64,000 nucleotides of DNA from positions 9,386-73,385 of the IMG/VR virus record IMGVR_UViG_3300025645_000055. One strand, given 5' to 3'. Positions 1,913 to 43,661 of the stretch are shown here, in pieces (position 1 is the first letter of the stretch; each line of letters starts with the position of its first letter). The notes below the pieces were generated by a model. The model saw nothing but the letters and a program-made list of their open reading frames with translations. It did not search any database and had not been told where the DNA came from. The DNA is from a virus. The position numbers and the translations under genes were made by a program.

Positions 1913-3754
1913 ATGAGTACAGAAAACAATGGATTAATTTCAAGAGACAAAGGAATGTTCTCGAAAATGACACCCTTATTAAAAGTGATATTGGTGGTAG
2001 CAGTTTTAGCAATAGTAGGAGTGGCTGTTTGGTTTGCTGCACCTGGATTAAGGGTTTCGGCTTCTCAATCGTTAGATGAACTAACATTGGATGACACGAA
2101 ATTAGACAATCAATCAGATTCAAACTTGATTGTATTACCAACAACAAGACCTTCTAATAAGGTTCAAAGTACACCTCAAGTGACTATTGGAACTTATGCT
2201 TGGAATGGTTTAACACCTCTTGCGGCTGCAACTGGTGGTCCTTTTACAACAAAAGGTTCTTTAATGGAAACTAATGGTGTAAACTTAAGAATTGTACGTC
2301 AAGACTGGTTATCTGGTTTACGTGAAATGCAAATGAAGTTCATCGAACAATTTGATGCTGGACAAGAATTCCCAGACTCTGATAGAGCTGCAATGGGAAT
2401 TACAATAATGGGTGATGGAGCACCTTTCTATATCTCCACAATGCAAGGAGCATTAGATGCTAAGTTTGGTAAGGGTAAATATCATGTTGAAGTGGTAGGT
2501 GCATTTGGAATGTCAGATGGTGAAGATAAGGTGATTGGTCCACAAGAGTGGAAAACTAATCCTAAATCAATGATTGGGGCATTAATCTCAACAGTACCAG
2601 GTGATGGTGACTGGGTTACATTGTTAAACTATTGTTTTGCAAATGGACTTAAGGTTAATCCAGACTTTAATACTTATGATGCAGATGCAGTAAATATTTT
2701 TCCATCTAAGGATGATGATTACATCAACTCTGCGAAAGAGTTAATCGCTTCTCAAACAGAAGGATTTACAGTATCACTTAAAGTGGTTAAAGATGGTCAA
2801 CTTACTGGTGAAACAATTCAAAAAGAAATTGATGGTTGTGCAACTTGGACACCTGGAGATAAAATGGTGTTTGATGCATTGGTTGGATATACTGATATTG
2901 CATCAACAAGAGACTTCCCAAATCAAATGGCAACAACACTTATAGTTGTTAAAGAATGGGCATCTACACATCCAGAGATTGTTTCAAATATTCTTAAGTC
3001 GGCATTAACGGCTGCTAATCAAATCAAACAATATGATGAATGGGCAGTTAGAGGTTCAGAAGCTATTGAAGCAACTTTTAAAGTAGAAACACCACAATAC
3101 TGGTATGATATGTTTAAAGGTCAAACTGGAACTAAGAATGGTATTACATACAATATGGGTGGTACGAGAGTACTTAACTATGCAGATGTAATGCAATACT
3201 ACGGTATCACAGATGGTACTAATAGATATAAAGCAGTTTATAATCAAGTATCGGGTTACTTAGTAAACCTTAATCCTTTTGGATTTAACGAATCGGTTGA
3301 TGGTATTGTACCTTACGCAGATGCAGTTAACTTGTTCTACCTTAAGAACATCAATGATATTGATGCTGGTACAACAGTAGAGGTTGATTATACAACAACA
3401 AAAACAGAAGTATTAGCAGATGGAGATTGGTATATCAACTTCAACACTGGTAGTGCAGAGATATTAGGTTCATCTAATACAGACTTAGCTTCGATATATA
3501 ATTTGTTAGTTCAAGCAGAACAAACAAAGATATTAGTTAGTGGTCATACAGATAGTACTGGTAGTGCTAGTGTTAACTTCCCTCTTTCAGAGAGCAGAGC
3601 AAACTCTGTTGTTAACTACTTAGTTAAACGAGGTATCTCAAGAGATAGAATACAAGAAGTAAGTGGTAAAGGAGATTCTGAACCAATTGCATCTAATGGT
3701 ACGAATAGTGGTAGAGCGACTAATCGTAGAGTACAAGTAACATTTGTTCAATAA
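1913..3754 (+). CDS. ABC-type periplasmic substrate-binding domain fused to a C-terminal OmpA-like peptidoglycan-binding domain
   Basis: N-terminal TM; C-terminal INFNTGSA..GHTDSTG..NFPLSESRANSV..NRRVQV OmpA motifs; in an operon with an ABC permease and ATPase. Confidence 0.85.
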   Translation: MSTENNGLISRDKGMFSKMTPLLKVILVVAVLAIVGVAVWFAAPGLRVSASQSLDELTLDDTKLDNQSDSNLIVLPTTRPSNKVQSTPQVTIGTYAWNGLTPLAAATGGPFTTKGSLMETNGVNLRIVRQDWLSGLREMQMKFIEQFDAGQEFPDSDRAAMGITIMGDGAPFYISTMQGALDAKFGKGKYHVEVVGAFGMSDGEDKVIGPQEWKTNPKSMIGALISTVPGDGDWVTLLNYCFANGLKVNPDFNTYDADAVNIFPSKDDDYINSAKELIASQTEGFTVSLKVVKDGQLTGETIQKEIDGCATWTPGDKMVFDALVGYTDIASTRDFPNQMATTLIVVKEWASTHPEIVSNILKSALTAANQIKQYDEWAVRGSEAIEATFKVETPQYWYDMFKGQTGTKNGITYNMGGTRVLNYADVMQYYGITDGTNRYKAVYNQVSGYLVNLNPFGFNESVDGIVPYADAVNLFYLKNINDIDAGTTVEVDYTTTKTEVLADGDWYINFNTGSAEILGSSNTDLASIYNLLVQAEQTKILVSGHTDSTGSASVNFPLSESRANSVVNYLVKRGISRDRIQEVSGKGDSEPIASNGTNSGRATNRRVQVTFVQ

Positions 3755-8338: not shown

Positions 8339-9055
8339 ATGGCAAGAGAAACCTTACTTAGTGGAAAAGCATATGATAATTGTGAAATGCAATCTATCAA
8401 TGGTGATTTTTTAGCTTTTACCAGCTTCAAAAGAATGAATTGGTATGTTAGTAGAGGTTTAGCCGAAGTTATTGATGACAACAAGTATCAATTAAATTTT
8501 GTGACCAATGGGGATTTCGGTGATAAGAGTGATTACTATCGATTAAAACTAGAGAATAAATGTGTTATATGTGGTGATGAAGATAATTTAACTAAGCACC
8601 ACATCGTACCATATCAATTTAGAAAGTTTATTCCAATGAAATATAAAAAGGGGTTATCCCGTGATGTGGTTTGTATATGCCATGGTTGTCATAAAGATTA
8701 TGAAACAATAGCAGACATCTTTAAGGAAGAACTACTAATCAAGTATGATTTGGTTGATGACTTAAATATTAGTAACACCCTTGGTAAGTATTTTAATACA
8801 CTTAAGAATTATAGTCACTATCAAACTAAAGAAACAATAGAACGTTTATCTAGTTTTATAACAACACATGTTGGTAGACCAATTGATGAAGTACTTAAAG
8901 ATGATTGGTTAGAAACAGTCGATACTTCTAAAAAATTGGTTGATTTAGTTAATGTTGATGACTTTATTATTTTATGGAGAAACCATTTTATAGAAACAAC
9001 AGAACCAAAGTACTTACCAGAAGAATGGGTTAAGGACATAAATAGAGTAATATAA
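8339..9055 (+). CDS. HNH-like zinc-binding protein resembling the EXD2 C-terminal domain
   Basis: YDNC..WY..ENKCVICG..HHIVP..FRK..DVVCICHGCH..WRNHF..PKYLP motif order. Confidence 0.75.
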   Translation: MARETLLSGKAYDNCEMQSINGDFLAFTSFKRMNWYVSRGLAEVIDDNKYQLNFVTNGDFGDKSDYYRLKLENKCVICGDEDNLTKHHIVPYQFRKFIPMKYKKGLSRDVVCICHGCHKDYETIADIFKEELLIKYDLVDDLNISNTLGKYFNTLKNYSHYQTKETIERLSSFITTHVGRPIDEVLKDDWLETVDTSKKLVDLVNVDDFIILWRNHFIETTEPKYLPEEWVKDINRVI

Positions 9056-9234
9056 TGGCAGAAAGAAAAACAAAGTGTGATGTGTGTGATAGTACTAAAT
9101 TTATAATTCAACATACTATACCCCAAAAAATGTTAGTCAAACAATTACAAATGGTACAAGCTAAATGTATATGTGGTAATATTTTTGAGTTCGTAAGACG
9201 CACACCTGGAGTGGGTAGAGGCAGAATTCTATAA
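9055..9234 (+). CDS. Small zinc-ribbon protein (59 aa, not in ORF track)
   Basis: CDVC...CICG; start overlaps the previous stop (taatg). Confidence 0.6.
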   Translation: MAERKTKCDVCDSTKFIIQHTIPQKMLVKQLQMVQAKCICGNIFEFVRRTPGVGRGRIL

Positions 9235-9261
9235 ATTTTTTAAAAGTTTTTCCAAAAAGAC

Positions 9262-9551
9262 TTGCTTTTTATAAAAAGTTGTCTTATATTTGTACCATAA
9301 TAATTACAATGACTTGTAGTCGGGGGCTTCTAATCAAACGGGAGTTATACGTAATCATACTGGAAATGGAAGTGTAAGTCTTCCCAGGTCAACAAAAAAA
9401 AATAAATTAAAAGTTTTTTAAATAAAACTTGCTTTATTAAAATAATAGTTCTATATTTGCACTGTTGTTAATTTGAAAGACAACGAAAAAAAATATATTA
9501 AAAGTTTTTTAAAAAAAACTTGCTTTATTAAAATAATAGTCTTATATTTGC
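9262..9551 (+). promoter_or_regulatory. Three tandem Bacteroidota sigma70-type promoters driving the RNA island
   Basis: cttgc-N~18-tatatttg at about 9262-9292, 9429-9459 and 9520-9550; the last two are near-identical ~50-bp repeats. Confidence 0.8.
9310..9392 (+). ncRNA. tRNA-like RNA with atypical D and anticodon regions
   Basis: Acceptor tgacttg/caggtca; T-like arm ggaag-tgtaagt-cttcc. Confidence 0.5.
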
Positions 9552-9576
9552 AGAGTCGTTTAGAAATAGATGACAC

Positions 9577-9592
9577 GTTCATTAAAATATTG
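9577..9592 (+). promoter_or_regulatory. boxA-like antitermination element
   Basis: gttcattaaaatattg between the promoters and the giant RNA; second copy at 11644-11662. Confidence 0.5.
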
Positions 9593-9597
9593 AAAAT

Positions 9598-10575
9598 ATG
9601 GGGTGCTTATACTCCAGTCTTCGGACAAGGATAGACCAGCAATGGTTTAAAGTAGTAGATTTAGTGTCTATTGCGTTGCATTAACCCTTCGGGGTTAGAC
9701 AATCCACGTAAGCATGATTACCAAACCGTATCAAGGGCATCTGCTGAGATACGAAACCCACAACTTATGGGGATTGAGTAGAAATACAATAGTAAGGTAG
9801 TTAGAATCAGATATCCTAAAAGGGGGTATTGTTTGACTAAACGGTGTAAAAGCTATTGGTTGGATTCATTAAGAAATTTTATGGGACTTATCTTCGGGTA
9901 ATAAGTGAAATGATTAACATGATGGTAAAACATTATATCGAGGCGTTGTATTCTTAACCACTCAAAAGGTGGCACGAATGTCAACCAGCAGACACGTCTT
10001 GAAACTTAGAGTGAGGCTTATACCAGAGTTAAATGGTGCATTTTTTTTTGATAAAAATAAAAAGAGAAAGTTCTGTTGGACTAGAACTGAAAATTAAGTT
10101 ATGCCGTTGAAATATATGGCTGGTTGATTCCTCTCAAGGGATGAGATTAAATTTGATGAGTACATGTCATAAGGAACGGGGTCGCACTCGTTTATTCTCG
10201 CAAGGAACCTGGGCAAAGAAAGCTAGATTATATAAGTTCTATGTAGCAGAGTTATGGTCACTCTAAGACCAACTTAATGTTATCTACTTGAAGGAAACTG
10301 ATAGTGTGTGAAAAAGCTGAAAGGCATATAAATGATAACGGGGGCAACCCACTTGCTGAACACTCAAGCATAAATCTGGGCGTACTACTTCAACTTGTTG
10401 GAGGGAGTGCAATAGGTTCAAATCCTTTTACGCCCACTAAATTATATTTCGAGAGTACTAGATAACAAATTCCAGTCGATGTACTCGTTAAGAACCTATC
10501 CGCAAGATAGGAATATACCCAAGAGTAATGGATTGTGAGGGAATTGTATAATTTAAACTAAGAATCTCATCATAT
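9598..10575 (+). ncRNA. Giant structured ncRNA, GOLLD-like
   Basis: About 980 nt with no ORF of 60 aa or more; UUCG/GNRA hairpins; long-range pairs 9603-10/9708-15, 9740-46/9986-92, 9699-9706/10529-36, 10140-48/10563-71; next to tRNAs and enclosing a tRNA-like element. Confidence 0.7.
10378..10436 (+). ncRNA. D-armless tRNA-like element, copy 1, inside the giant RNA
   Basis: gggcgta/tacgccc acceptor; agg-ttcaaat-cct T arm; one central hairpin. Confidence 0.65.
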
Positions 10576-10631
10576 GGATGAATATAAGCTTTGTAATGAA
10601 GATTATTTTAAATAAGTTGAGGTTTTTAAAC

Positions 10632-10700
10632 GGGGATTTCGTCTAAGACAAAGGCAGCACCACACCAGGTGTTAATGAAGTATCGAACCTTCAATCCCCA
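10632..10700 (+). ncRNA. tRNA-like RNA with a 6-nt ACACCA loop
   Basis: Cloverleaf ggggatt/aatcccc, gtct/aggc, gcacc/ggtgt, gaag/cttc. Confidence 0.7.
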
Positions 10701-10780
10701 CAAATATAGTTGGTTGGACTATAATAGGATTATGGTACCCCTTTGAAGGGTTTAATGTTAGAAACTTAATTTTATAAACT

Positions 10781-10848
10781 GCGAGTTTCGTCTAAGCTAA
10801 GACGCTATCCCACCAGATAGAAATGAAGTATCGAATCTTCGACTTGCA
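10781..10848 (+). ncRNA. tRNA-like RNA with a 6-nt CCACCA loop
   Basis: Cloverleaf gcgagtt/gacttgc, gtct/agac, ctatc/gatag, gaag/cttc; paralog of 10632-10700. Confidence 0.7.
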
Positions 10849-10852
10849 CAAA

Positions 10853-11021
10853 TTTTGAAGTGGTGAAAGGAAGACACCCTACGGAATATAAAACTGTCCT
10901 TTGAGAATGGTGTGTGGAGCAACTGTGATTAGTACCTCCAACAGTAAAGTAGAGTCTAACCGACTAATAATCAAAAAGTCGGAACAATTAGAATAGTTAG
11001 TTTCATGGCTAACCTTCAAAA
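10853..11021 (+). ncRNA. Expanded tRNA-like RNA (~170 nt)
   Basis: Closing stem ttttgaag/cttcaaaa; Leu-like 5' end gtggtgaaaggaagacac; terminal hairpin gttagt/gctaac. Confidence 0.45.
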
Positions 11022-11023
11022 AT

Positions 11024-11082
11024 GGGCGTACTATCACAAGTTATTGTGAGAAGTGTGTTAGGTTTAAATCCTTTTACGCCCA
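11024..11082 (+). ncRNA. D-armless tRNA-like element, copy 2
   Basis: Same acceptor and T arm as 10378-10436 but a different central hairpin (tcacaa/ttgtga). Confidence 0.65.
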
Positions 11083-11112
11083 CTATAGTTTCGAAAACTT
11101 AAATTGAGAAAC

Positions 11113-11187
11113 CGAGAGGTAGCTCAGTTTGCTCAGAGCGTCACCCATTGGGGGTGGAGGTCGTTGGTTCGAATCCAACCCTCTCGA
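11113..11187 (+). tRNA. Atypical tRNA with a Pro-type acceptor (C1:G72, A73) and anticodon loop CATTGGG
   Basis: Full cloverleaf with TTCGAAT; A33; TTG at the canonical anticodon position; no D-loop GG. Confidence 0.7.
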
Positions 11188-11276
11188 CAAAAATTAAAAT
11201 AAATTAACAAAAAACGTAACTTTAATATAGTTACACATATTTAATAGAAAGGGATAAACCCTAAACAATAGAAATT

Positions 11277-11381
11277 ATGATGAATTATACGACAACATAT
11301 CAAAAGCAGTATCCGCAAGGGGGGAAACCTAGTGGGCTGGACTTGTCGTGTATTTACTCTAAAGGTAAAACAGGTGTGTAA
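11277..11381 (+). CDS. Putative attenuator leader peptide MMNYTTTYQKQYPQGGKPSGLDLSCIYSKGKTGV
   Basis: 34-codon ORF after an A-rich start context (gaaattatg), overlapping alternative stems upstream of a terminator. Confidence 0.75.
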   Translation: MMNYTTTYQKQYPQGGKPSGLDLSCIYSKGKTGV

Positions 11382-11408
11382 ATAAATCAATTACATAACT
11401 TAAACGGT

Positions 11409-11445
11409 AAGCTCAGCTATAAAGAAATTTAGTTGGGCTTTTTTC
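11409..11445 (+). terminator. Intrinsic terminator (attenuator) ahead of the tRNA array
   Basis: aagctcagcta...tagttgggctt plus T-tract; first tRNA starts 16 nt later. Confidence 0.85.
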
Positions 11446-11460
11446 ATGCCCAAATTTCAA

Positions 11461-11555
11461 CGGGTAATGTGCGAGTGGTTTAAGCAATCGGTCTTGGAAG
11501 CCGATGACAATTTCAAGAAGGTTATTGTCCGTAGGTTCGAATCCTACTTACCCGA
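11461..11555 (+). tRNA. tRNA-Pro(TGG) with a long variable arm (class II-like body)
   Basis: cgggtaa/ttacccg, loop CTTGGAA, variable stem gacaat/attgtc, T arm gtagg-ttcgaat-cctac. Confidence 0.8.
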
Positions 11556-11563
11556 CTAAACAT

Positions 11564-11636
11564 CGGGATGTATATCAATTGGTAGATTACGTGCTTTGGG
11601 AGTACGAGGTTGCTGGTTCGAGTCCAGTCATCCCGA
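11564..11636 (+). tRNA. tRNA-Pro(TGG)
   Basis: Canonical cloverleaf, loop TTTGGGA. Confidence 0.95.
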
Positions 11637-11643
11637 CAGAATG

Positions 11644-11662
11644 AAAGTTCATTGACATGTTG
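11644..11662 (+). promoter_or_regulatory. boxA-like antitermination element
   Basis: aaagttcattgacatgttg, resembling Bacteroidota rrn boxA as recalled. Confidence 0.55.
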
Positions 11663-11732
11663 GTTAAGTAAAATATAGAAGTCTAGGGAGCCATTGCTCT
11701 TAAAACGTCCAACCTAGAAACTTCTATAATAT

Positions 11733-11805
11733 TGGGATATGGTGTAATTGGTAACACGTCTGTTTTTGGTGCAGAAGAGTATGGGTTCGAGACCCGTTGT
11801 CCCAA
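11733..11805 (+). tRNA. tRNA-Gln(TTG)
   Basis: Cloverleaf, loop TTTTGGT, U1:A72. Confidence 0.9.
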
Positions 11806-11812
11806 CTAATAT

Positions 11813-11885
11813 TGCCCTATGGTATAACGGTTAATACGTCTGGTTTTGAACCAGAAGATTGGGGGTTCGAATCCGTCTAGGGTAA
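11813..11885 (+). tRNA. tRNA-Gln(TTG)
   Basis: Cloverleaf, loop TTTTGAA. Confidence 0.9.
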
Positions 11886-11958
11886 CAATAAAGATATTTG
11901 GGAGACTGTTATTAATTCATAGAACCTATTGCGAGTGGTATCATAGAATTAAAATTAT

Positions 11959-12031
11959 TGGGGTATGGTGTAATGTGTAACATTCAAGATTTTGGTCCTT
12001 GAGAGTGTCGGTTCGAGTCCGTCTACCCCAA
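11959..12031 (+). tRNA. tRNA-Gln(TTG)
   Basis: Cloverleaf, loop TTTTGGT. Confidence 0.9.
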
Positions 12032-12182
12032 CTATATTGTGTGCGTAACTAAGGTATTTAGGAGTATACATAACAAGTAGTTGACTTAGTACTATCAATG
12101 AAAAGTATGTGGAAAATGATACAGTTTGAACGGAATCCCATGTTGGGGAGAGATATGAGTGCAAGCCTCATCAATATAAATT

Positions 12183-12264
12183 GGGAGTATTGAGCAACTG
12201 GTTGCTCAGCAGACTGTAAATCTGTGGTCTTACGACATTGGGGGTTCGAATCCCTCTACTCCCA
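12183..12264 (+). tRNA. tRNA-Tyr(GTA)
   Basis: gcaga-CTGTAAA-tctgt; variable arm; TTCGAAT. Confidence 0.92.
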
Positions 12265-12269
12265 CAATT

Positions 12270-12350
12270 GGGAACTAAAAGCCATTCGGATATGGCATCG
12301 GGACTGTAAATCTCGTCCTTCGGGGAGTGGTTCGAGTCCACTAGGTCCCA
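12270..12350 (+). tRNA. tRNA-Tyr(GTA) with an atypical D arm
   Basis: cggga-CTGTAAA-tctcg; variable hairpin cc-ttcg-gg; T arm agtgg/ccact. Confidence 0.85.
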
Positions 12351-12423
12351 CAATTGGTCACAGATGAAACGACCAGTCTTCACAGAAAGACTTCCTCATG
12401 AGGGGATATAAATAAAGCTGCAT

Positions 12424-12493
12424 GGGTTGTGAAAGGATACTAGCCGAGGTTGTAACCCTCTAGCTTTGTAGGGTTCGAGTCCCTATCAGCCCA
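12424..12493 (+). tRNA. Degenerate or atypical tRNA-Tyr(GTA) with a reduced D arm
   Basis: gggttg/cagccc; gagg-TTGTAAC-cctc; taggg-ttcgagt-cccta. Confidence 0.6.
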
Positions 12494-12498
12494 CAACT

Positions 12499-12631
12499 TG
12501 ACTATAATTGGTCGGCAATGTTAATGTAGTGTTTGAGAGCAAACCGTATAATCTCGGCAAACCATCATTAATGAATGAGTTATGTATGTTACATCATAAC
12601 CTTTTGTGGGGTTCGACTCCCCAATGGTCAA
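12499..12631 (+). ncRNA. Expanded tRNA-like RNA (~133 nt)
   Basis: tgactat/atggtca acceptor; canonical T arm tgggg-ttcgact-cccca; two internal hairpins. Confidence 0.6.
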
Positions 12632-12667
12632 CACGCTAGGCTAGTAAGTGTCCAACACGCTAGGCTA
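12629..12667 (+). repeat. Direct repeat caacacgctaggcta, two copies
   Basis: Seen directly between tRNA genes. Confidence 0.7.
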
Positions 12668-12671
12668 ATAT

Positions 12672-12743
12672 TCCTTCGTAACTCAGAGGCAGAGTACCGT
12701 GCTTTTAACACGGGAGTCGTGATATCGTAATTCACCGAGGGAA
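12672..12743 (+). tRNA. tRNA-Lys(TTT) with an atypical T loop
   Basis: ccgtg-CTTTTAA-cacgg; T loop atcgtaa. Confidence 0.8.
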
Positions 12744-12822
12744 CAAAAATTAGTAGCATATGCTCGATGAACGACTATGTACATGTAAGTAGGGATACTA
12801 GTCATGTTACTAATTTTAATTT

Positions 12823-12895
12823 GCACCCGAAGCTCAAGTGGACGGGCTTCCCGCTTTTAACGGGAAGGTTACGGGTTCGAGGCCCGTGGGGTGCA
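12823..12895 (+). tRNA. tRNA-Lys(TTT)
   Basis: tcccg-CTTTTAA-cggga; T arm acggg/cccgt. Confidence 0.88.
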
Positions 12896-12900
12896 CAAAT

Positions 12901-12984
12901 GCGATGTTAGTGTAAGTCAAAGATTCTAGATTAAACACGCAACCCATAGGGGTTGAGATGGGGGTTCAAGTCCTTTGCATCGCT
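12901..12984 (+). ncRNA. Gly-acceptor tRNA-like RNA with an enlarged D loop and a 6-nt anticodon loop
   Basis: gcgatgt/gcatcgc plus U73; caacc-catagg-ggttg. Confidence 0.6.
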
Positions 12985-12989
12985 CAAAT

Positions 12990-13083
12990 GATAGTATAGT
13001 GAAATATTCTGTGTAGACGTACATATAAAAATCACACCTTCTGCTTAGGTTGGAATAATTGGTATGAAATCCAATTACTATCT
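12990..13083 (+). ncRNA. tRNA-like RNA with a D-loop hairpin insertion and a degenerate anticodon arm
   Basis: gatagta/tactatc; gtga/tcac enclosing tgtgta-gacg-tacata; T-like arm attgg/ccaat. Confidence 0.55.
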
Positions 13084-13088
13084 TAATT

Positions 13089-13159
13089 GCCGATATCGTA
13101 TAACGGTATTACGTGCCCTTGGTAGGGGTGAAATCTCAGCTCGTTTCTGAGTATCGGCT
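13089..13159 (+). tRNA. tRNA-Thr(GGT)
   Basis: gccgata/tatcggc; loop TTGGTAG; T loop ctcgttt. Confidence 0.85.
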
Positions 13160-13160
13160 C

Positions 13161-13316
13161 TAAGTTTATTAATAAGTGGGTAAAACCTTGAGGCATCCCC
13201 CTCGGACTATGACGGCTTATATTTGACGATATAAGTGTTCAAGTTTCTGGTCAAGCAATGCACCAGGTTTGGTGGAATCACCTTACAAAAGCGAGGATTA
13301 ATATTAATAGACTTAA
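13161..13316 (+). ncRNA. Unknown structured RNA (~155 nt) between tRNAs
   Basis: 13-bp closing stem taagtttattaat/attaatagactta enclosing GC-richer hairpins. Confidence 0.5.
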
Positions 13317-13318
13317 CT

Positions 13319-13401
13319 GCGAATATCGTATAATGGAGGGGAAACCCGTATTATAGTGGCCTTCCAAGTCACGGATGAGAGTTCGATTCTCTCTATTCGC
13401 T
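13319..13401 (+). tRNA. tRNA-Gly(TCC) with a GAAA hairpin in the D loop
   Basis: Loop CTTCCAA; U73; insert ggg-gaaa-ccc. Confidence 0.88.
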
Positions 13402-13409
13402 CAATAATT

Positions 13410-13496
13410 GCCTCTATAGCTCAGTTGGTTTGGCGAAAGCCTTAGAGCAGCCCCCTTTTAAGGGGCAGGTCGTAGGTTCGAATCCTACTGGGGGTA
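13410..13496 (+). tRNA. tRNA-Lys(TTT) with a GAAA hairpin in the D loop
   Basis: gcccc-CTTTTAA-ggggc; insert ggc-gaaa-gcc. Confidence 0.88.
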
Positions 13497-13555
13497 CTAA
13501 GTTAGTTATGACATTATGATTTGAGGCTTAATCATCCTCTTTAACTAACTTTATT

Positions 13556-13626
13556 GCGAGATGTAGCTTAATGGCAAAGCATCGGCCTTCCAAGTCGAGG
13601 ATGCGGTTCGACCCCGACATTTCGCA
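13556..13626 (+). tRNA. tRNA-Gly(TCC) with an 8-bp acceptor and short T stem
   Basis: gcgagatg/catttcgc; loop CTTCCAA; A73. Confidence 0.75.
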
Positions 13627-13634
13627 CTAAAAAT

Positions 13635-13720
13635 GCCCCCCTAGTATAATGGAGACGAAAGTCGTATTACCTTGGATTTGTAACCCAAAGATATCAGTTC
13701 GATTCTGATGGGGGGCTCCA
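13635..13720 (+). tRNA. tRNA-Thr(TGT) with a GAAA hairpin in the D loop; CCA encoded
   Basis: Loop TTTGTAA; insert gac-gaaa-gtc. Confidence 0.88.
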
Positions 13721-13725
13721 TACCA

Positions 13726-13810
13726 GCCGATGTCGCATAGTGGTCTATTGCACTTGATTTGTAATCAAGAGAAAGAAATTTCATCGTCAGTTCGAATCTG
13801 ACCATCGGCT
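13726..13810 (+). tRNA. tRNA-Thr(TGT) with a long variable arm
   Basis: cttga-TTTGTAA-tcaag; variable stem gaaa-gaaa-tttc. Confidence 0.88.
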
Positions 13811-13825
13811 CACATATTTATTAGT

Positions 13826-14287
13826 ATGAAAAACTTAATCAACAAAATCTGGGCGTTCATCAAACTAATGCTACCTAATAGCTGGTTTCCAGAAGACGTA
13901 ATAATTTACGCTATCGAAGATGATATGAAATCGTGGAAACTTATTGAAGTTCTCATTGTTAGAGAAATAAATAAGTATAGAATCGAAAATGGTCTTAAAC
14001 CAGTATCTGGTGAGTTAAACACCAAGCTAGAAACAAAGATAAGAAGCGACTTTATGTCGGATGAAGAAAAACTATCCCACGATGGTTTTGGTGTATCATC
14101 AAGAAGACTTAAAGATATGGGGTTTAAAAGTGTTGGTGAAATTATAGCCTATGGTTATACAAATGGTGGTGATGTGGTTCATGCTTGGAAAAATAGTCCA
14201 AGTCATAATCGTGTATTACTTGGAAATTATAAATACCTGGGTGTTAGTAAAACTGATAGATATTATTGTGTAATATTTACCAGATAA
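13826..14287 (+). CDS. CAP/SCP domain protein
   Basis: INKYRIENGL, LSHDGF, GEIIAYG, WKNSPSHNRVLL. Confidence 0.9.
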   Translation: MKNLINKIWAFIKLMLPNSWFPEDVIIYAIEDDMKSWKLIEVLIVREINKYRIENGLKPVSGELNTKLETKIRSDFMSDEEKLSHDGFGVSSRRLKDMGFKSVGEIIAYGYTNGGDVVHAWKNSPSHNRVLLGNYKYLGVSKTDRYYCVIFTR

Positions 14288-14289
14288 AT

Positions 14290-14400
14290 GCGAGTGTAGC
14301 TCAGTTGGTTAGAGCGTTATTTAAATCATGCGGGAGTAGCTCAATGGTAGAGCGATACGTTACCAACGTATAGGTTGAGGGTTCGAATCTGATTACTCGC
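14290..14400 (+). pseudogene. Chimeric tRNA: 5' fragment (14290-14317) plus a tRNA-Gly(ACC) body (14330-14400)
   Basis: atacg-TTACCAA-cgtat; the 3' end tactcgc pairs with the upstream gcgagtg, not with its own 5' end. Confidence 0.65.
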
Positions 14401-14406
14401 CAAATT

Positions 14407-14434
14407 AAGGATGACATAAATGTTATCCTTTTTT
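14407..14434 (+). terminator. Terminator closing the tRNA array
   Basis: aaggatgacat-aa-atgttatcctt plus T-tract. Confidence 0.8.
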
Positions 14435-14469
14435 ATTTGTTTTATTCGATTAATTGAACTATATTTGTT

Positions 14470-14540
14470 AAATGATAGGAGTATGAGTCCGTACATAAAA
14501 ATTGGTCGAATAGGACATCGCTACCAAAACCTATCATTTT
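14470..14540 (+). ncRNA. Three-way-junction leader RNA with a possible kissing loop
   Basis: aaatgatagg/cctatcattt; loop gtcc complementary to loop ggac; starts just after the promoter tatatttg. Confidence 0.45.
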
Positions 14541-14562
14541 TTAATAAATAAAACAAAGAATT

Positions 14563-14802
14563 ATGATTAGAATTATTAAAGTATTAATGGATTTCGGGAT
14601 GGATTTTGAATATGAAAATCGTGGGTCTGAAGGTGAGAAGATTGTTTCCTATGAACTAGGGTTAGATATATCCAACCAAAATGGTAAGATATATTACTCT
14701 TGTGGTTGTGAACCAGAAACAGTTGAAGATGTAGATTTTGAATACATGCGACTTGCTAGTGAAGTACAAGACGAATGTATCGCACAAACAGCATCCTTTT
14801 AA
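14563..14802 (+). CDS. Hypothetical protein
   Basis: ORF with A-rich start context. Confidence 0.7.
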   Translation: MIRIIKVLMDFGMDFEYENRGSEGEKIVSYELGLDISNQNGKIYYSCGCEPETVEDVDFEYMRLASEVQDECIAQTASF

Positions 14803-14803
14803 T

Positions 14804-15127
14804 ATGAGTGATGATGTAGCTTGCCCATATTGTGGCACATACCAAGAGATTAACCACGATGATGGTTATGGGTATGAAGAAGATGGAAATCATGAACAAC
14901 AATGTTATAATTGTGAAAAGAATTTTATCTTCACAACCGCAATAATATATCATTATGAAGGTTATAAAGCAGATTGTTTGAATGGTGATGAACACTTATA
15001 TAAACCAGTGCCAACTGCACCTAGGTGTTACGCTAAAATGAGGTGTGAAATGTGTGGTATTGAAAGAGAACCAACGGAAGATGAAAAAGTAACATATAGT
15101 ATACCAGAAAAACCGAATTATGATTAA
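14804..15127 (+). CDS. Zinc-ribbon phage protein
   Basis: CPYC, CYNC, CEMC; start moved to 14804. Confidence 0.75.
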
Positions 15128-17263: not shown

Positions 17264-18208
17264 ATGGGAAGCTTCTATTCAACATGTTCGATATCGGATA
17301 TGACATTAACAAATCAAAAAACAAGTATTCAATTACTAGTACCAACCTTTTCTAAAGATTTTTCAGAACATAAGGGTATGATAGTATCTAACGATGGGGC
17401 AATGTGTTTCTTTGCACCATTTGGGTTTCCAATCCATGGTAGATATTATGACTATGGGCAAATTGAAGATATAGAAAGAGATGCAAACGTTGAAATGCTT
17501 GAGGATTTCTTCAACCTATCAATAGAACAAATACTAGAGAATGTTGGTGATGACCGTTGGCATAAATATGGTGAAAAAAGAGATGGTGATTCAACTGATA
17601 ACCACTGGAAAATCACTGGTAAAGATGGTGGTGCTGTTAAGAATCAAGATGTGTTCCTTGAATTGGGGATGACATATTTTAGAACTGAGGTTTTAGAATA
17701 CCTAGAAGAAGGTTGGAAAGATTTAATACCTGGGGCTAAAGAACATGGTCAATACACAATTGGTGGTAGAATAGGACAATACTTTGATGAATTAAAAAAA
17801 TTAAGAAAAGAAGATAAATCAATATTTGGTTCAAAATATGAATCAAAATATGGTACTAGTTTATATCTACCAAGTTTGATTGAAATTAGTATGTGGGATT
17901 TATTACCAATCACTCAAGAAACATCTGGTGATGAAATGCTTAAGCAAGTTACGTTCTTATACAATCTTGGATATCGTAAACTAGGTAAAATGTTATTACC
18001 ATCAGTTTATGGTTCACAACAAGACAATTGGTTTGAAACACTTAAGTTTAATAAATTCACCAATGATTTATTGGTTAAAGATATTAACGAATATAATAGT
18101 TGGATGATTGAAGATTATACCACTGATGGTGTTTTTGATAAAGAAGGTTTTATTGAAGACTATGGTGAAAAATATCTTGAACAAATAGAAATGATTCAAA
18201 ATGGGTAA
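17264..18208 (+). CDS. Hypothetical phage protein
   Basis: 314-aa ORF. Confidence 0.8.
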   Translation: MGSFYSTCSISDMTLTNQKTSIQLLVPTFSKDFSEHKGMIVSNDGAMCFFAPFGFPIHGRYYDYGQIEDIERDANVEMLEDFFNLSIEQILENVGDDRWHKYGEKRDGDSTDNHWKITGKDGGAVKNQDVFLELGMTYFRTEVLEYLEEGWKDLIPGAKEHGQYTIGGRIGQYFDELKKLRKEDKSIFGSKYESKYGTSLYLPSLIEISMWDLLPITQETSGDEMLKQVTFLYNLGYRKLGKMLLPSVYGSQQDNWFETLKFNKFTNDLLVKDINEYNSWMIEDYTTDGVFDKEGFIEDYGEKYLEQIEMIQNG

Positions 18209-18743
18209 AAAAGATGTAAGTAGATTTTTAAGTCTTGTATTAAGACATAAACCAGAGACGATTGGAATTACCCTAGATGAAAATGGGTGGGTAGATGTTG
18301 ATGTGTTATTATCTTCACTAAAATCTCATAATAGAGAAATTACTTTTGGTGAACTTAAAGAATCGGTCATCACCAATAATAAGCAACGATTTACCTTTAA
18401 CGATGATGAAACCCAAATTAGGGCTAATCAAGGACATAGTGTTGATGTTGATTTACAATTAAAACCTTCTAAACCACCAAGTAAATTATACCATGGGACT
18501 GTTGAGAAAGCAATTCAAGGTATAAAAGAGACTGGTTTAAAGAAAATGAATCGTCACGCACTACATTTAAGTGAAGATGTGGCTACGGCTACTAATGTGG
18601 GTTCTAGACGTGGTGATGCAATCATACTAGAAATTGATTCTGGTGCAATGGACATAGATGGATTTGAATTCTGTCAATCAAAAAATGGTGTGTGGCTTAT
18701 TGATATAGTACCACATAGATATATTAACTTTGAAAACTATTAA
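18201..18743 (+). CDS. kptA: RNA 2'-phosphotransferase (Tpt1/KptA)
   Basis: LSLVLRHKP, KQRF, IRANQGHS, LYHGT, HLS, NGVWL. Confidence 0.95.
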   Translation: MGKKDVSRFLSLVLRHKPETIGITLDENGWVDVDVLLSSLKSHNREITFGELKESVITNNKQRFTFNDDETQIRANQGHSVDVDLQLKPSKPPSKLYHGTVEKAIQGIKETGLKKMNRHALHLSEDVATATNVGSRRGDAIILEIDSGAMDIDGFEFCQSKNGVWLIDIVPHRYINFENY

Positions 18744-20344: not shown

Positions 20345-20908
20345 ATGAAACTAACCAAAATTTACAAAAAACTAATCACCGAAGCAAGTAATTCACATTC
20401 ATACGGATGTGTCATGCTTTATTTTGATGCTAAAGAACCATTGTTCAAACAAGCACAAAAAATAATAGAAAAAGATGACCTATACTTAGGTACTGAAGAT
20501 GACCCAGGTTATGGTTTAGAAACAGAACCACATGTTACTGTATTATATGGTATTCATGGTGATGTTCCAGATGAAGATGTTGAAGCTAAAATAGATAACT
20601 TCACCCAACCAGAAATAAACTTGAAGGATATATCAATATTTGATAATGCAGCCAAGGGGTTTGATGTGGTTAAATTTGATATCACCAATAAGGAACTGAA
20701 TAAGATGAATAAGGATGTATCTAAATTACCCCACACAACAGATTACCCAGATTATCATGCACATATTACAATTGCATATGTTAAAGCTGGTAAAGGTGAG
20801 AAATATGTTCAAACATTATCAGAGGATAAACAAATTAACATTAAACCCAATAAGATAGTCTACAGTAAACCAGATGATTCCAAAAAAACTTATGATTTTA
20901 ACGGATAA
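20345..20908 (+). CDS. 2H phosphoesterase, Acb1/T4 57B-like
   Basis: GCVMLY, EPHVTVLYG, HAHITIAYV (two HxT motifs). Confidence 0.8.
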   Translation: MKLTKIYKKLITEASNSHSYGCVMLYFDAKEPLFKQAQKIIEKDDLYLGTEDDPGYGLETEPHVTVLYGIHGDVPDEDVEAKIDNFTQPEINLKDISIFDNAAKGFDVVKFDITNKELNKMNKDVSKLPHTTDYPDYHAHITIAYVKAGKGEKYVQTLSEDKQINIKPNKIVYSKPDDSKKTYDFNG

Positions 20909-27710: not shown

Positions 27711-28493
27711 ATGAAAAACGATTTAGGAAAACGAATGAAAGAGAACTACGAGTATAGGACTAAATCCTATATTCCTAGACGAACATATACAATAATTAGA
27801 TTAGATGGTAAAGCTTTTCACACCTTTACAAAAGGGTTTGAAAGACCATATGATACTAAGTTAATGGATGCAATGAATTATGCAACCAAGATGCTTTGTG
27901 AGAATGTACAAGGTTGTAAGTTGGGTTATACACAGTCTGATGAAATTAGTTTATTATTAACTGATTTTGATAAGATTGGTACTGATGCTTATTTAGATGG
28001 TGCTATTCAAAAGATAGTATCAATTACTGCATCTATGGCTACGGCATACTTCAATAGATACATGCTTGAAAATGATATTACTGCTAAATTGGCTTTCTTC
28101 GATAGTCGAGTGTTTAGTATTCCAGAAGCAACTGAAGTTGAAAACTATTTCATTTGGCGACAAGAGGATTGTGTTAGAAACTCAATTAGTATGACTGCAC
28201 AGTCACTTTATAGTCACAAAGAACTACACGGTGTTAACACATCTGGTATGCAAGATTTATGTATGGAGAAGGGTGTTAATTGGAACGACCAACCCGATGG
28301 GTTTAAAAGGGGTCGTATGATTGTTAAAGAGCAATATGAAATCCAAGCATTTGACCTGGAGACTAGTGGTTTAGATAACAACCATAGACCAATTAATGTT
28401 GGTACTGCAATCAGAAATAGGTGGGCTATCAAACCAGCTACTTGGATTCTAAGAGATAGAGAAGAGTTTAGCGATTTAATACCAAAACGATAA
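27711..28493 (+). CDS. tRNA(His) guanylyltransferase Thg1-like protein
   Basis: RLDGKAFHTFT, YTQSDEISL, FDSRVF, YFIWRQEDCVRNS. Confidence 0.95.
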   Translation: MKNDLGKRMKENYEYRTKSYIPRRTYTIIRLDGKAFHTFTKGFERPYDTKLMDAMNYATKMLCENVQGCKLGYTQSDEISLLLTDFDKIGTDAYLDGAIQKIVSITASMATAYFNRYMLENDITAKLAFFDSRVFSIPEATEVENYFIWRQEDCVRNSISMTAQSLYSHKELHGVNTSGMQDLCMEKGVNWNDQPDGFKRGRMIVKEQYEIQAFDLETSGLDNNHRPINVGTAIRNRWAIKPATWILRDREEFSDLIPKR

Positions 28494-41741: not shown

Positions 41742-43661
41742 ATGAATAAAATAGAAATAGGAGACATACTAGAAGGAACAATACATTTTAACAAATTTGG
41801 TTCTGCATATCTAGTAAGTAATAAATTAAAAAAAGACATCTACATACATAAAAATAACACTAATAAATCTATTCATTTAGATACTATTAGTCTTAGGGTT
41901 GTGAAAGGAGTAAATCGTTCAATAGAAGGTGTCGTTGAAGAAGTAATAGAACGGTTTAAAACAACATTCGTTGGTACAATACAAATTAATAATGGGTTTG
42001 GGTTTCTGGTTGCAGATTCCGATAAAATGCCATTTGATTTGTTTATTCCACAAATTAAATTAATGGGTGCAACCAACGGTCAAAAGGTGGTTGGTAGATT
42101 GGTTGATTGGCTTGATGGTATGAAAACACCAAACGGTGAAATCATTGAGATACTTGGTGATATTAACGATAACGATGTTCAAACAAATGCTATCGTTCAC
42201 CAGTATGAATTACCAGGTGTGTTCGATGAAGATGTTAAAGCAGAGTCTGAAATGATATCTGATGTGATTACTGATGAAGATATTTCAAATAGGTTAGACC
42301 TAAGAGAGATATTAACATTTACAATTGACCCAGATACCGCAAAAGACTTTGATGATGCACTATCATACGAAGACTTACCAAATGGTGATATAAAGATTGG
42401 AATACATATAGCAGATGTTAGTCATTATGTGAGACCTGGAACTGCATTAGATAAAGAAGCATACGAAAGAGGAACATCCATCTATTTAACCGACACGGTT
42501 ATTCCGATGCTCCCAGAGAGACTTTCTAATGGGATATGTTCACTAAGACCTAATGAAGATAAACTAACGTTCTCAGCCATCTTTACGTTCAATAAGAACT
42601 ATGAGGTTATTGATGAATGGTTTGGTAGAACGGTAATACATTCTAACCATAGACTTACATATGGTGAGGCAGAAAATCTTATATTATTAAGTAAACCCAC
42701 TAGTGATGATGAAATGGAAAGTGTGTTACCAGTAATAAATGATATTGCAAAGGAATTAAGGAGTATTAGAGATGATGATGGTGCAATTACATTTCAACGT
42801 GATGAATTAAAGTTCTTCACCAATGGAGCTGGTGAGTTGGATATAATGGTGAAACCAACATTAAGTTCTAATATTCTTATTGAAGAATTCATGCTACTAG
42901 CCAACAGAAGGGTTGGTAGATTATTAAAGAGTAAGAAGATTCCGACTGTTAATAGAATACACGAAGAACCTAATCCAGAGAAGCTTGGTGATGTTCAAAA
43001 ATCACTTAAAGAGTTTGGATATAATGTTGATTTATTAAGTCCTAAAAACTTAAGGAGAAACATTAACAACTTATTAAGAGAAGTACATGGTAAGGATGAT
43101 GAGCATTTGGTGAATAACCTATTGCTTAGGTCGATGCAAAAGGCAGTATATTCAACAGAACACGCAGGTCACTTTGGTTTGTCGTTTGATGATTATACAC
43201 ACTTTACATCACCAATTAGACGTTACCCAGATATCATGGTTCATAGAATACTTAATCGAGTGTTGGAAGGTAAAAGCCAACATAAGGAGAGTAAACTATC
43301 CACAAGATGTAATCACTTATCCAATATGGAAGTTAGAGCACAAAAAGCATCTAGGGAGTCTATCAAGTATAAGCAATGTGAGTACATGAAAGAAAGGGTT
43401 GGTAAACTATTTACTGGTGTTGTTTCATCAATAAACACACATGGGATATATGTTGAAATAGTAGGTGCAAACTGTGATGGTTTCATCAATACTTCATCAT
43501 ATTCTAAAGATGAATCATATACCATTAATTCAAATAAAGTATCTACAATTGGAAACGATAGTGGAAAGACAATTACATTAGGTGATAAGATACCAATTCT
43601 AATTAAAAGTGTAGACTTTGTAAGTAAAACTATCAACGTTAAGCATTTTAATTTAAAATAA
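41742..43661 (+). CDS. rnr: Ribonuclease R (RNB family)
   Basis: TIDPDTAKDFDDALS, HIADVSHYV, HFTSPIRRYPD, C-terminal S1 domain. Confidence 0.95.
   Translation: MNKIEIGDILEGTIHFNKFGSAYLVSNKLKKDIYIHKNNTNKSIHLDTISLRVVKGVNRSIEGVVEEVIERFKTTFVGTIQINNGFGFLVADSDKMPFDLFIPQIKLMGATNGQKVVGRLVDWLDGMKTPNGEIIEILGDINDNDVQTNAIVHQYELPGVFDEDVKAESEMISDVITDEDISNRLDLREILTFTIDPDTAKDFDDALSYEDLPNGDIKIGIHIADVSHYVRPGTALDKEAYERGTSIYLTDTVIPMLPERLSNGICSLRPNEDKLTFSAIFTFNKNYEVIDEWFGRTVIHSNHRLTYGEAENLILLSKPTSDDEMESVLPVINDIAKELRSIRDDDGAITFQRDELKFFTNGAGELDIMVKPTLSSNILIEEFMLLANRRVGRLLKSKKIPTVNRIHEEPNPEKLGDVQKSLKEFGYNVDLLSPKNLRRNINNLLREVHGKDDEHLVNNLLLRSMQKAVYSTEHAGHFGLSFDDYTHFTSPIRRYPDIMVHRILNRVLEGKSQHKESKLSTRCNHLSNMEVRAQKASRESIKYKQCEYMKERVGKLFTGVVSSINTHGIYVEIVGANCDGFINTSSYSKDESYTINSNKVSTIGNDSGKTITLGDKIPILIKSVDFVSKTINVKHFNLK

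Follow-up and report, generated by a model that had tools for sequence, protein, structure and literature searches.

A class II tRNA-Pro(UGG) with a tRNA-Ser-like body belongs to a conserved, apparently undescribed family of phage tRNAs

The split between class I and class II tRNAs, in which a long variable arm is found only in Leu, Ser, bacterial Tyr and Sec tRNAs, is among the most stable features of translation. Among the described systems closest to the one reported here are the nematode nev-tRNAs of Hamashima (2016), which are reportedly eukaryotic class II tRNAs with class I anticodons, charged with leucine whatever the anticodon. Here we analyse a tRNA-Pro(UGG) gene with a class II body, located at positions 11461-11555 on the + strand of a 64,000-nucleotide stretch of viral DNA (hereafter the window), which comprises bases 9386-73385 of the 73,385-bp IMG/VR virus record IMGVR_UViG_3300025645_000055. 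It resembles the nev-tRNAs in joining a long variable arm to an anticodon of a class I family, but differs from them in that its acceptor end matches the amino acid of its own anticodon. For phage tRNAs, Azam and co-workers are said to have proposed in 2024 that changes in the anticodon loop serve to escape host anticodon nucleases.

The same hypothesis is put forward by van den Berg et al. (2023; PMC10264068), and the phage tRNAs described there resemble ours in that an isoacceptor carries a non-canonical loop and that RNA-repair genes are present in the genome; those tRNAs are, however, class I and show point differences, whereas here the whole architecture differs. The allo-tRNAs described by Mukai et al. 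(2017; PMC5389517) share with our tRNA a long-arm Ser/Sec-like scaffold, a metagenomic provenance and a non-Ser anticodon, and are sometimes encoded in polycistrons of irregular tRNAs, but as described there their stems are 8/4 or 9/3, their D stem is long and closed by a tetraloop, and their discriminator is mostly G73 or U73, predicting serine, whereas the family presented below combines 7/5 stems and a single fixed anticodon with a Pro acceptor end, its D arm having a stem of 3 bp and a loop of 11 nt. Finally, E. coli evolving without TrmD was reported to recruit A37 tRNA-Arg genes through anticodon mutation (Clifton et al., 2021; PMC8643618), which likewise represents an A37 body re-addressed by an anticodon mutation to TrmD-independent decoding of codons that usually fall to an m1G37 tRNA; unlike this laboratory event within Arg, which called for no switch of identity, the case at hand appears to have changed amino-acid identity as well and is fixed in a phage lineage. 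Full-text literature searches, with supplements outside their scope (including the possibly related tRNA clusters and irregular polycistrons of PMC5389517), returned no class II tRNA-Pro and no tRNA arrays of the kind described here.

ARAGORN calls a tRNA-Pro(tgg) at window positions 11461-11556, and the Rfam tRNA model (RF00005) matches 11461-11555 with 54.2 bits, against a gathering score of 29 (E 6.4e-10). The parts of the tRNA are as follows:

11461-11555, + strand: class II (five-arm) tRNA of 95 nt, with anticodon UGG, a Pro-type acceptor end and a Ser(UGA)-type body
11461-11467 (CGGGTAA), paired with 11548-11554 (TTACCCG), + strand: acceptor stem of 7 bp, with C1:G72
11470-11486, + strand: D arm, with a 3-bp stem (TGC/GCA) and an 11-nt loop, GAGTGGTTTAA
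11488-11504, + strand: anticodon arm TCGGT-CTTGGAA-GCCGA, with UGG at 11495-11497 and A37 at 11498
11505-11530, + strand: variable region of 26 nt, consisting of U44, a 6-bp stem (GACAAT/ATTGTC), a 12-nt loop, TTCAAGAAGGTT, and C48
11531-11547, + strand: T arm GTAGG-TTCGAAT-CCTAC
11555, + strand: discriminator A73, from sequence reading and family comparison

Direct reading of the sequence also gives U8 and G9, and an anticodon loop of C32, U33, UGG, A37 and A38. As in tRNA-Ser, the D loop has additional residues past G18 G19, and the stem of the variable arm has one unpaired base on either side. No CCA is encoded, CTA following directly after A73. The minimum-free-energy fold is the same five-arm cloverleaf (-29.1 kcal/mol, z -2.43; 4 of 200 shuffles are equally stable). 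The original prediction, made from the letters of the window, had described a combination of Pro identity elements (C1:G72, A73 and UGG) with a Ser-like D loop, a long variable arm and A37 in place of G37, and each part of this description holds: sequence reading gives the Pro elements and A37, the fold contains the long arm, and the database comparison below bears out the Ser-like D loop.

With canonical bacterial and phage tRNA-Pro(UGG), this tRNA shares C1:G72, A73, U34, G35, G36, G15:C48 and the 7/5 acceptor/T architecture. It lacks, however, the class I architecture of a 4-5-nt variable loop and a 4-bp D stem, with 3 bp in the D stem, 11 nt in the D loop and 26 nt in the variable arm, and it carries A37 and C32 in place of G37 and U32, and hence no TrmD substrate site. 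With tRNA-Ser(UGA) it shares the D loop (GAGYGGTTKAA), the anticodon arm (..GGU-CUUGAAA-ACC..) except for position 36, the junction of the variable arm and the T arm, but it departs from it in the anticodon, in having C1:G72 and A73 for G1:C72 and G73, in that G2:C71 is not conserved, and in an arm of 24-26 nt (against 16-17 nt in four phage tRNA-Ser) with a larger, purine-rich loop.

Beyond what had been predicted, the tRNA is a member of a conserved family, apparently undescribed so far and carried by phages, and one of several architecture-shifted tRNAs in its arrays. In all pattern scans for family members the acceptor stem was left unconstrained. The exact D loop combined with CTTGGAA yielded one further copy in IMG/VR (L001, on a 152-kb contig), and a looser pattern of the D and anticodon loops yielded 21 stretches, of which nine are tRNAs (L001 and eight new ones). 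A pattern without any anticodon letters, consisting of the D arm and the start of the variable arm, matched nine stretches, eight of them family tRNAs, one of which was new; all eight carry UGG and A37, seven in the loop CUUGGAA and one in CUUGGAC. In the metagenome collection, 102 stretches were matched, 64 of them ARAGORN tRNAs, by a pattern that fixed CTTGGA, so that these 64 say nothing about the conservation of UGG or A37. The 39 of 103 metagenome pattern matches that are not ARAGORN tRNAs are mostly tRNA-Ser-like 5' halves running into unrelated DNA; they were left out of the counts, although a small number (L071, L121 and L144) do belong to the family and had been missed or truncated. 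Pooled, the family comprises 47 distinct class II UGG tRNAs from 75 phage or metagenome loci, for which position counts were made after shifting one ARAGORN call (L087) by one base.

Searches of other collections found no family member. Neither a blastn search of GenBank phages (50,697 records) with the window tRNA nor a megablast search of GenBank phages with window positions 10500-15000 returned a match; in representative bacterial and archaeal genomes, the exact narrow D-arm plus CTTGRA pattern hit six stretches and zero tRNAs; and in 401 genomes sampled from the phylum of a Bacteroidetes metagenome-assembled genome, six pattern matches were found, none of them a tRNA.

Many contigs, L058, L079, L081, L105 and L133 among them, carry such tRNA-Ser-like 5' halves, which end in ...GGTCTTGGA and are followed by unrelated DNA that holds a conserved GTCACCGCAGGTGAC hairpin; ARAGORN calls no tRNA at these places. 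One possibility is that the halves are tRNA-derived and form the ends of an element.

Conservation across the 47 distinct members is highly uneven along the molecule. C1:G72 and A73 are found in 46 of them, G15, C48 and G30:C40 in all, and G49 in 43 (the window copy has G15, C48 and G49), whereas pairs 2:71 to 7:66 vary freely, with 2:71 being A:U in 23, U:A in 16, G:C in seven and G:U in one, and C11:G24 occurs only once. When the 11 members on viral contigs are aligned, pairing holds in 99.3% of pair cells, and both sides have changed in 21 of 27 pairs, in all five helices including the variable arm; none of 500 shuffles matches this, and slid registers are 36-48% paired. Among the acceptor pairs of these 11 members, C1:G72 is invariant and the other six covary. 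The variable arm is 24-26 nt long in the family, with a stem of 7-9 bp in 44 of the 46 distinct sequences that could be parsed, and its loop keeps an A-N-A-G-G-like motif (AAAGG in 27 of the 46, ACAGG in four and ATAGG in two). The class II tRNA-Pro is thus a real, selected RNA. That it should be debris of evolution, a duplicated tRNA-Ser gene in decay whose anticodon mutated by chance, is very improbable: tRNA arrays do readily duplicate, and the window copy stands apart from the rest of the family, in which no other member has so short an arm stem (6 bp) or so large an arm loop (12 nt), but the compensatory changes in every helix of its 46 distinct relatives, their invariant functional positions and a conserved synteny speak against decay, and the covariation by itself already largely refutes it.

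The body of the tRNA is of Ser-type ancestry. Used alone, the D-arm pattern matches 28 stretches in IMG/VR, 23 of them inside ARAGORN tRNAs, and these are 22 tRNA-Ser (20 GCU and two UGA) and the family member L001. The phage tRNA-Ser(UGA) shares the D loop, and its anticodon arm, TCGGT-CTTGAAA-ACCGA, differs from the TCGGT-CTTGGAA-GCCGA of our tRNA at positions 36 and 39. When bodies were compared across 483 distinct tRNAs after removal of the acceptor stem, the anticodon and the variable arm, the 25 nearest non-family bodies were those of long-arm Gln tRNAs, tRNA-Ser(UGA), long-arm Trp and Cys tRNAs and one CUA tRNA, with zero class I tRNA-Pro among them; one long-arm Gln tRNA is identical to the window tRNA in its anticodon stem and T arm. 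In a blastn search of GenBank phages, a typical family member finds only cyanophage tRNA-Ser (4 records, 74-75% identity). The Ser-type D arm, anticodon arm and nearest bodies together identify it as a Ser(UGA)-type gene with an altered anticodon and acceptor top. In such a scenario, a class II gene of the tRNA-Ser(UGA) type would have been the ancestor, its anticodon would have shifted through a change of A36 to G, and the top of its acceptor stem would have been rebuilt to the bacterial proline signature (C1:G72, A73), with loss of the Ser-type acceptor determinants.

Which synthetase charges such a hybrid is best approached through identity elements. As tabulated in PMC9976931 (Table 1), proline identity in bacteria involves A73, G72, G15:C48, U17a, G49, G35, G36 and G37, serine identity G73, C72, G2:C71, R4:Y69, C11:G24, a large variable region and G30:C40, and leucine identity A73, the tertiary core and A20a. 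From the proline set, the family carries A73/G72, G35/G36, G15:C48 and G49, and has A37 in place of G37; U17a cannot be assigned in a Ser-type D loop and was left outside the comparison. G15:C48 is usual in tRNA-Ser as well and so does not discriminate for Pro. From the serine set, the tRNA at 11461-11555 has the large variable region with a Ser-type core, together with G2:C71, G4:C69 and G30:C40, but G73 and C72 are replaced, as in 46 of the 47 members, and G11:C24 stands in place of C11:G24; since G11:C24 is likewise found in four phage tRNA-Ser that share the D loop, this last element is possibly lineage-specific.

We give a probability of about 0.6 to the reading that the tRNA is charged with proline by the host prolyl-tRNA synthetase (ProRS) and reads CCN codons as proline, as a functional phage-encoded elongator tRNA that is independent of TrmD and serves as a differently shaped back-up in a conflict over tRNAs. 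That the acceptor end is tied to UGG (8/8) argues for an anticodon-reading enzyme, a coupling that the anticodon-blind seryl- and leucyl-tRNA synthetases (SerRS and LeuRS) would not impose; scaffolds under an anticodon-blind SerRS, as the allo-tRNAs, are described as bearing many anticodons (PMC5389517). The enzymes concerned must be those of the host, as the complete carrier phage G009 (321,624 bp, with terminal repeats, rated 100% complete) has neither a class II synthetase core nor TrmD: the class II synthetase core (PF00587) was found in none of 11 carrier records (10 fragments and G009), and TrmD (PF01746) in none of six, G009 included.

The same arrays encode further tRNAs with long arms, which bear on this question:

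window 13726-13810, + strand; record G000, 1383-1462; loci L046, L051, L052, L159 and L160: long-arm sister tRNAs

These class II-like tRNAs have the anticodons of Thr(UGU), Glu, Gln(UUG), His, Trp, Cys, Asn, Asp and Met. Their discriminators are those of the cognate amino acid in Trp (G73, 4/4), His (C73, 3/3), Cys (U73, 1/1), Thr (U73, 5/5) and Asp (G73, 5/6), while the long-arm Gln tRNAs have U1:A72 in 21 of 24 and a mixed discriminator. Ser-type D loops are found in the long-arm His, Trp and Cys tRNAs, with Gln being similar, and those for Trp and Cys also share a ..GGU-CU-NNN-AA-ACC.. anticodon arm, so that the set looks as if one scaffold had been re-addressed to several amino acids. In G009, where 44 ARAGORN tRNAs span all 20 amino acids plus a CUA tRNA, Trp and Cys are represented among the calls by long-arm tRNAs only. 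The retention of cognate discriminators in these sisters supports charging of each by its own synthetase, ProRS in our case, and disfavours the insertion of Ser. The CUA-anticodon tRNA of G009 (L160, G009:159544-159617), which ARAGORN labels 'Pyl', may be an amber suppressor and thus point to a recoding of TAG in that phage.

Ser insertion at Pro codons had been offered in the original prediction as one possible role. Here, SerRS would grip the Ser-type arm and core and serylate the tRNA, so that a fraction of CCN codons is read as Ser, giving a statistical proteome or poisoning the host. The D arm, the anticodon arm and the variable-arm junction do resemble those of tRNA-Ser(UGA), the window copy has G2:C71, G4:C69 and G30:C40, serine identity is described as lying mainly in the variable arm and being blind to the anticodon (PMC9976931), and a yeast tRNA-Ser bearing a UGG anticodon is reported to remain serylated (PMC9976931). 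We nevertheless consider this role rather improbable, as G73 and C72 are replaced in 46 of the 47 members, G2:C71 is present in only seven and C11:G24 in one, and the strict link between body and UGG is unexpected from an anticodon-blind enzyme. A mistranslating tRNA would moreover have kept a Ser acceptor end, and Ser would likewise have to be inserted by the long-arm tRNAs for Trp, Cys and His, whose Ser-type D loops are similar, even though these include the only Trp and Cys tRNAs called in a complete phage. Engineered long-arm tRNAs with His identity are reported not to insert Ser (PMC7590224).

A single tRNA does show the Ser acceptor end with a UGG anticodon. On the metagenome contig L153, at about 3372 on the - strand, a tRNA with the full tRNA-Ser acceptor end and body (G1:C72, G2:C71, G73, C11:G24 and a normal 20-nt arm with a GCAA loop) carries UGG, as the only tRNA in 12.9 kb. 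It may be a natural mistranslator that inserts Ser at Pro codons, or else a variant sequence of tRNA-Ser(UGA). The full Ser acceptor set makes it a model of a UGG tRNA charged with Ser, from which the family differs.

Charging with leucine is hardly credible. A73 is described as a crucial leucine determinant in E. coli and LeuRS as blind to both the anticodon and the sequence of the arm (PMC9976931), so that A73 on a class II body might make a LeuRS substrate and lead to CCN being read as Leu; but the Levitt pair is G15:C48 in 47 of 47 members and not A15:U48, the D loop is of the Ser type and has, by our numbering of GAGTGGTTTAA, a U and not the determinant A20a, C1:G72 would be left unexplained, and the argument from the coupling to the anticodon applies as it does for SerRS.

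Several points weigh against prolylation and the proposed benefit. ProRS is a class II enzyme and may not accommodate an arm of 24-26 nt. G37 is listed among the determinants of the E. coli ProRS (PMC9976931), and in E. coli a tRNA-Pro with an unmethylated G37 is reported to be charged less well than the methylated form (PMC8643618), so that an A37 tRNA may be a poor ProRS substrate. The variable-arm junction and the D loop have the Ser geometry that SerRS reads, so that some serylation is possible, and the G2:C71 and G4:C69 of the window copy lean in the same direction. As to conservation, many family loci come from related samples and are hence not independent, besides the 64 metagenome matches that are uninformative on UGG and A37. 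The benefit of nuclease evasion or TrmD independence is inferred from context, and in the complete carrier G009 no Tpt1 homologue was found. Expression is weakly supported: the RNA evidence consists of assembled metatranscriptome contigs, which cannot show a mature tRNA, its ends or its charging, and in three libraries such contigs cover 11220-11517 and 11541-11710 at a depth of 2-5 with 0-2 mismatches, while the array part 12416-13774 has no contig cover. This low-depth cover is compatible with a precursor transcript, but also with carry-over of DNA.

Two contigs from RNA runs of two different studies both end at 11517, inside the loop of the variable arm; we draw no meaning from this.

The class II tRNA-Pro would not stand alone as a decoder of CCN. 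Immediately downstream lies its class I counterpart:

11564-11636, + strand: canonical class I tRNA-Pro(UGG), 8 nt downstream, with loop TTTGGGA (G37), C1:G72 and A73

A short tRNA-Pro(UGG) is also present in 59 of the 64 metagenome loci, where the commonest gene order is Pro, class II Pro, His, Pro, His, Gln(CUG), long Gln, Gln, and 11 of the 12 short Pro calls of the viral loci have the canonical loop UUUGGGA (G37). Co-encoding of the two forms would thus provide two dissimilar decoders of CCN, differing in positions 32 and 37 and in shape, and such a pair could serve as a back-up in a conflict fought over tRNAs. With A37, the class II tRNA-Pro would neither be methylated by TrmD nor need to be, and its loop (C32, A37) and shape, unlike those of every canonical tRNA-Pro, lead us to expect that it escapes factors recognising either; the 3-bp D stem, the 11-nt D loop and the 24-26-nt arm would hide it from recognition as canonical tRNA-Pro. 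The genome carries a set of genes that fits such a conflict of tRNA damage and repair:

window 18201-18743, 20345-20908, 27711-28493 and 41742-43661, + strand: RNA repair and processing genes, comprising a Tpt1/KptA RNA 2'-phosphotransferase, a 2H phosphoesterase (Acb1 / 2'-5' ligase superfamily), a Thg1-like tRNA-His guanylyltransferase and an RNase II/R-like (RNB) protein

A Tpt1 homologue is found in only one of 10 other carrier records, so that the RNA-repair genes are no fixed companion of the tRNA. Of the roles suggested in the original prediction, a TrmD-independent and/or nuclease-resistant tRNA-Pro is therefore the one that fits, with C1:G72 and A73 in 46/47 members, A37 in 8/8 and the RNA-repair genes in its favour, although the benefits themselves are deduced from this context; Ser insertion is disfavoured.

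Further tRNAs touch on the Pro decoders. Class I-sized tRNAs with C1:G72, A73, UGG and A37 occur at L159 (G009:123031-123106) and on L001 at about 2296-2368 (- strand), with loops CUUGGAC and AUUGGAA, so that A37-type Pro tRNAs are not confined to the long-arm form. In the window, the tRNA at 11113-11187 (+ strand) has a Pro-type acceptor end (C1:G72, A73) and the loop CAUUGGG, which ARAGORN reads as Gln(UUG) with A33, while one base further it gives UGG followed by G; two registers are possible.

A different role, in which the molecule is not an adaptor at all, also deserves consideration. Uncharged and off the ribosome, it might serve, in the shape of a tRNA, to draw off a tRNA nuclease or modification enzyme of the host as a decoy or sponge, or offer the conserved purine-rich loop of its variable arm as a handle. 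Its variable arm (24-26 nt, 7-9-bp stem) is longer than in the phage Ser tRNAs compared, and the purine-rich loop keeps its A-N-A-G-G-like motif while the stem covaries, which suggests a reader of the loop; irregular tRNAs that are charged yet unused in translation are also reported (PMC5389517). We regard this as unlikely, since the 7/5 acceptor/T stems, U8, G18 G19, U33, the 7-nt anticodon loop, the TTCGAAT T loop and an intact anticodon are all kept, a decoy for a tRNA-Pro nuclease should copy UUUGGGA, from which the family departs at positions 32 and 37, and without charging there is little to explain why ProRS determinants are invariant.

Side by side with the long-arm tRNAs, the window array holds a second kind of altered tRNA:

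13319-13401, 13410-13497 and 13635-13717, + strand: tRNAs with a GNRA-capped hairpin in the D loop, from sequence reading

Their hairpin inserts are GGGGAAACCC, GGCGAAAGCC and GACGAAAGTC and their anticodons UCC, UUU and UGU, and a canonical copy that shares its anticodon is found near each of them. ARAGORN either fails to call these tRNAs or calls them too short, and in one of them Rfam places an insert of 14 nt. A tentative, and rather doubtful, extension of the ProRS reading is that this lineage of roughly 300-kb phages runs a second tRNA set of shifted architecture. One Ser-like class II scaffold would have been re-addressed to Pro and, it seems, to Gln, Trp, Cys and His by a joint swap of the anticodon and the cognate acceptor-end determinants, with other members of the set having D-loop hairpins; the bulky variants would be charged by host synthetases and be invisible, for steric or chemical reasons, to defence nucleases or to limits in TrmD supply, and the conserved A-N-A-G-G loop of the Pro arm would be the handle for a putative factor. 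If true, these would be natural class II tRNAs with an identity other than Ser, Leu or Tyr.

The record from which the window was taken is rated 20% complete by CheckV, which for 73,385 bp implies a phage of roughly 300 kb or more, and the DNA of the window occurs in sequencing runs labelled as freshwater metagenomes. ARAGORN finds 27 tRNAs in the whole record, 15 of them in the window, and Rfam finds 28 in the record; a second tRNA array occupies the first 2.8 kb of the record, upstream of the window. The array of the window lies in a 4.7-kb stretch without long open reading frames (about 9100-13800), and most of its anticodons are present two to four times each:

11113-14401, + strand: tRNA array, with 15 ARAGORN calls and further Rfam-only matches

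The genes of the window encode, among others, a Thg1-like protein, NAMPT, DNA methyltransferases, a T5 A1-like DNA-transfer protein, a sigma factor, a lysozyme, Tpt1/KptA, a 2H phosphoesterase, NUDIX and Sir2 proteins and an RNase II/R-like protein, as well as proteins with OmpA and T9SS sorting domains.

Just upstream of the array, an abundant RNA covers about 9650-10368 of the window (+ strand). In the three metatranscriptome libraries its depth reaches 380-1235 over 10000-10341, against 2-8 nearby, and its contigs are 718-835 nt long and extend upstream of 10000. It may be a large structured phage non-coding RNA of a new or divergent family. A weak match to the Rfam family GOLLD at 10011-10370 (34.6 bits, gathering score 150) disappeared when the wider region 8800-11200 was searched, and was rejected.

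What is new here is a tRNA that crosses the boundary between class I and class II with what is probably a matched switch of identity. If its Pro identity is true, then a long variable arm is no obstacle to ProRS and probably none to several other synthetases, and nature provides an example of a full Ser-to-Pro identity switch. It would also be a tRNA-Pro without the m1G37 (1-methylguanosine at position 37) site, the site that makes TrmD essential and a drug target. For the biology of the phages, the family would point to a diversification of whole tRNA architectures as a possible counter-measure in conflicts over tRNAs, going further than the point changes so far suggested for the anticodon loop.

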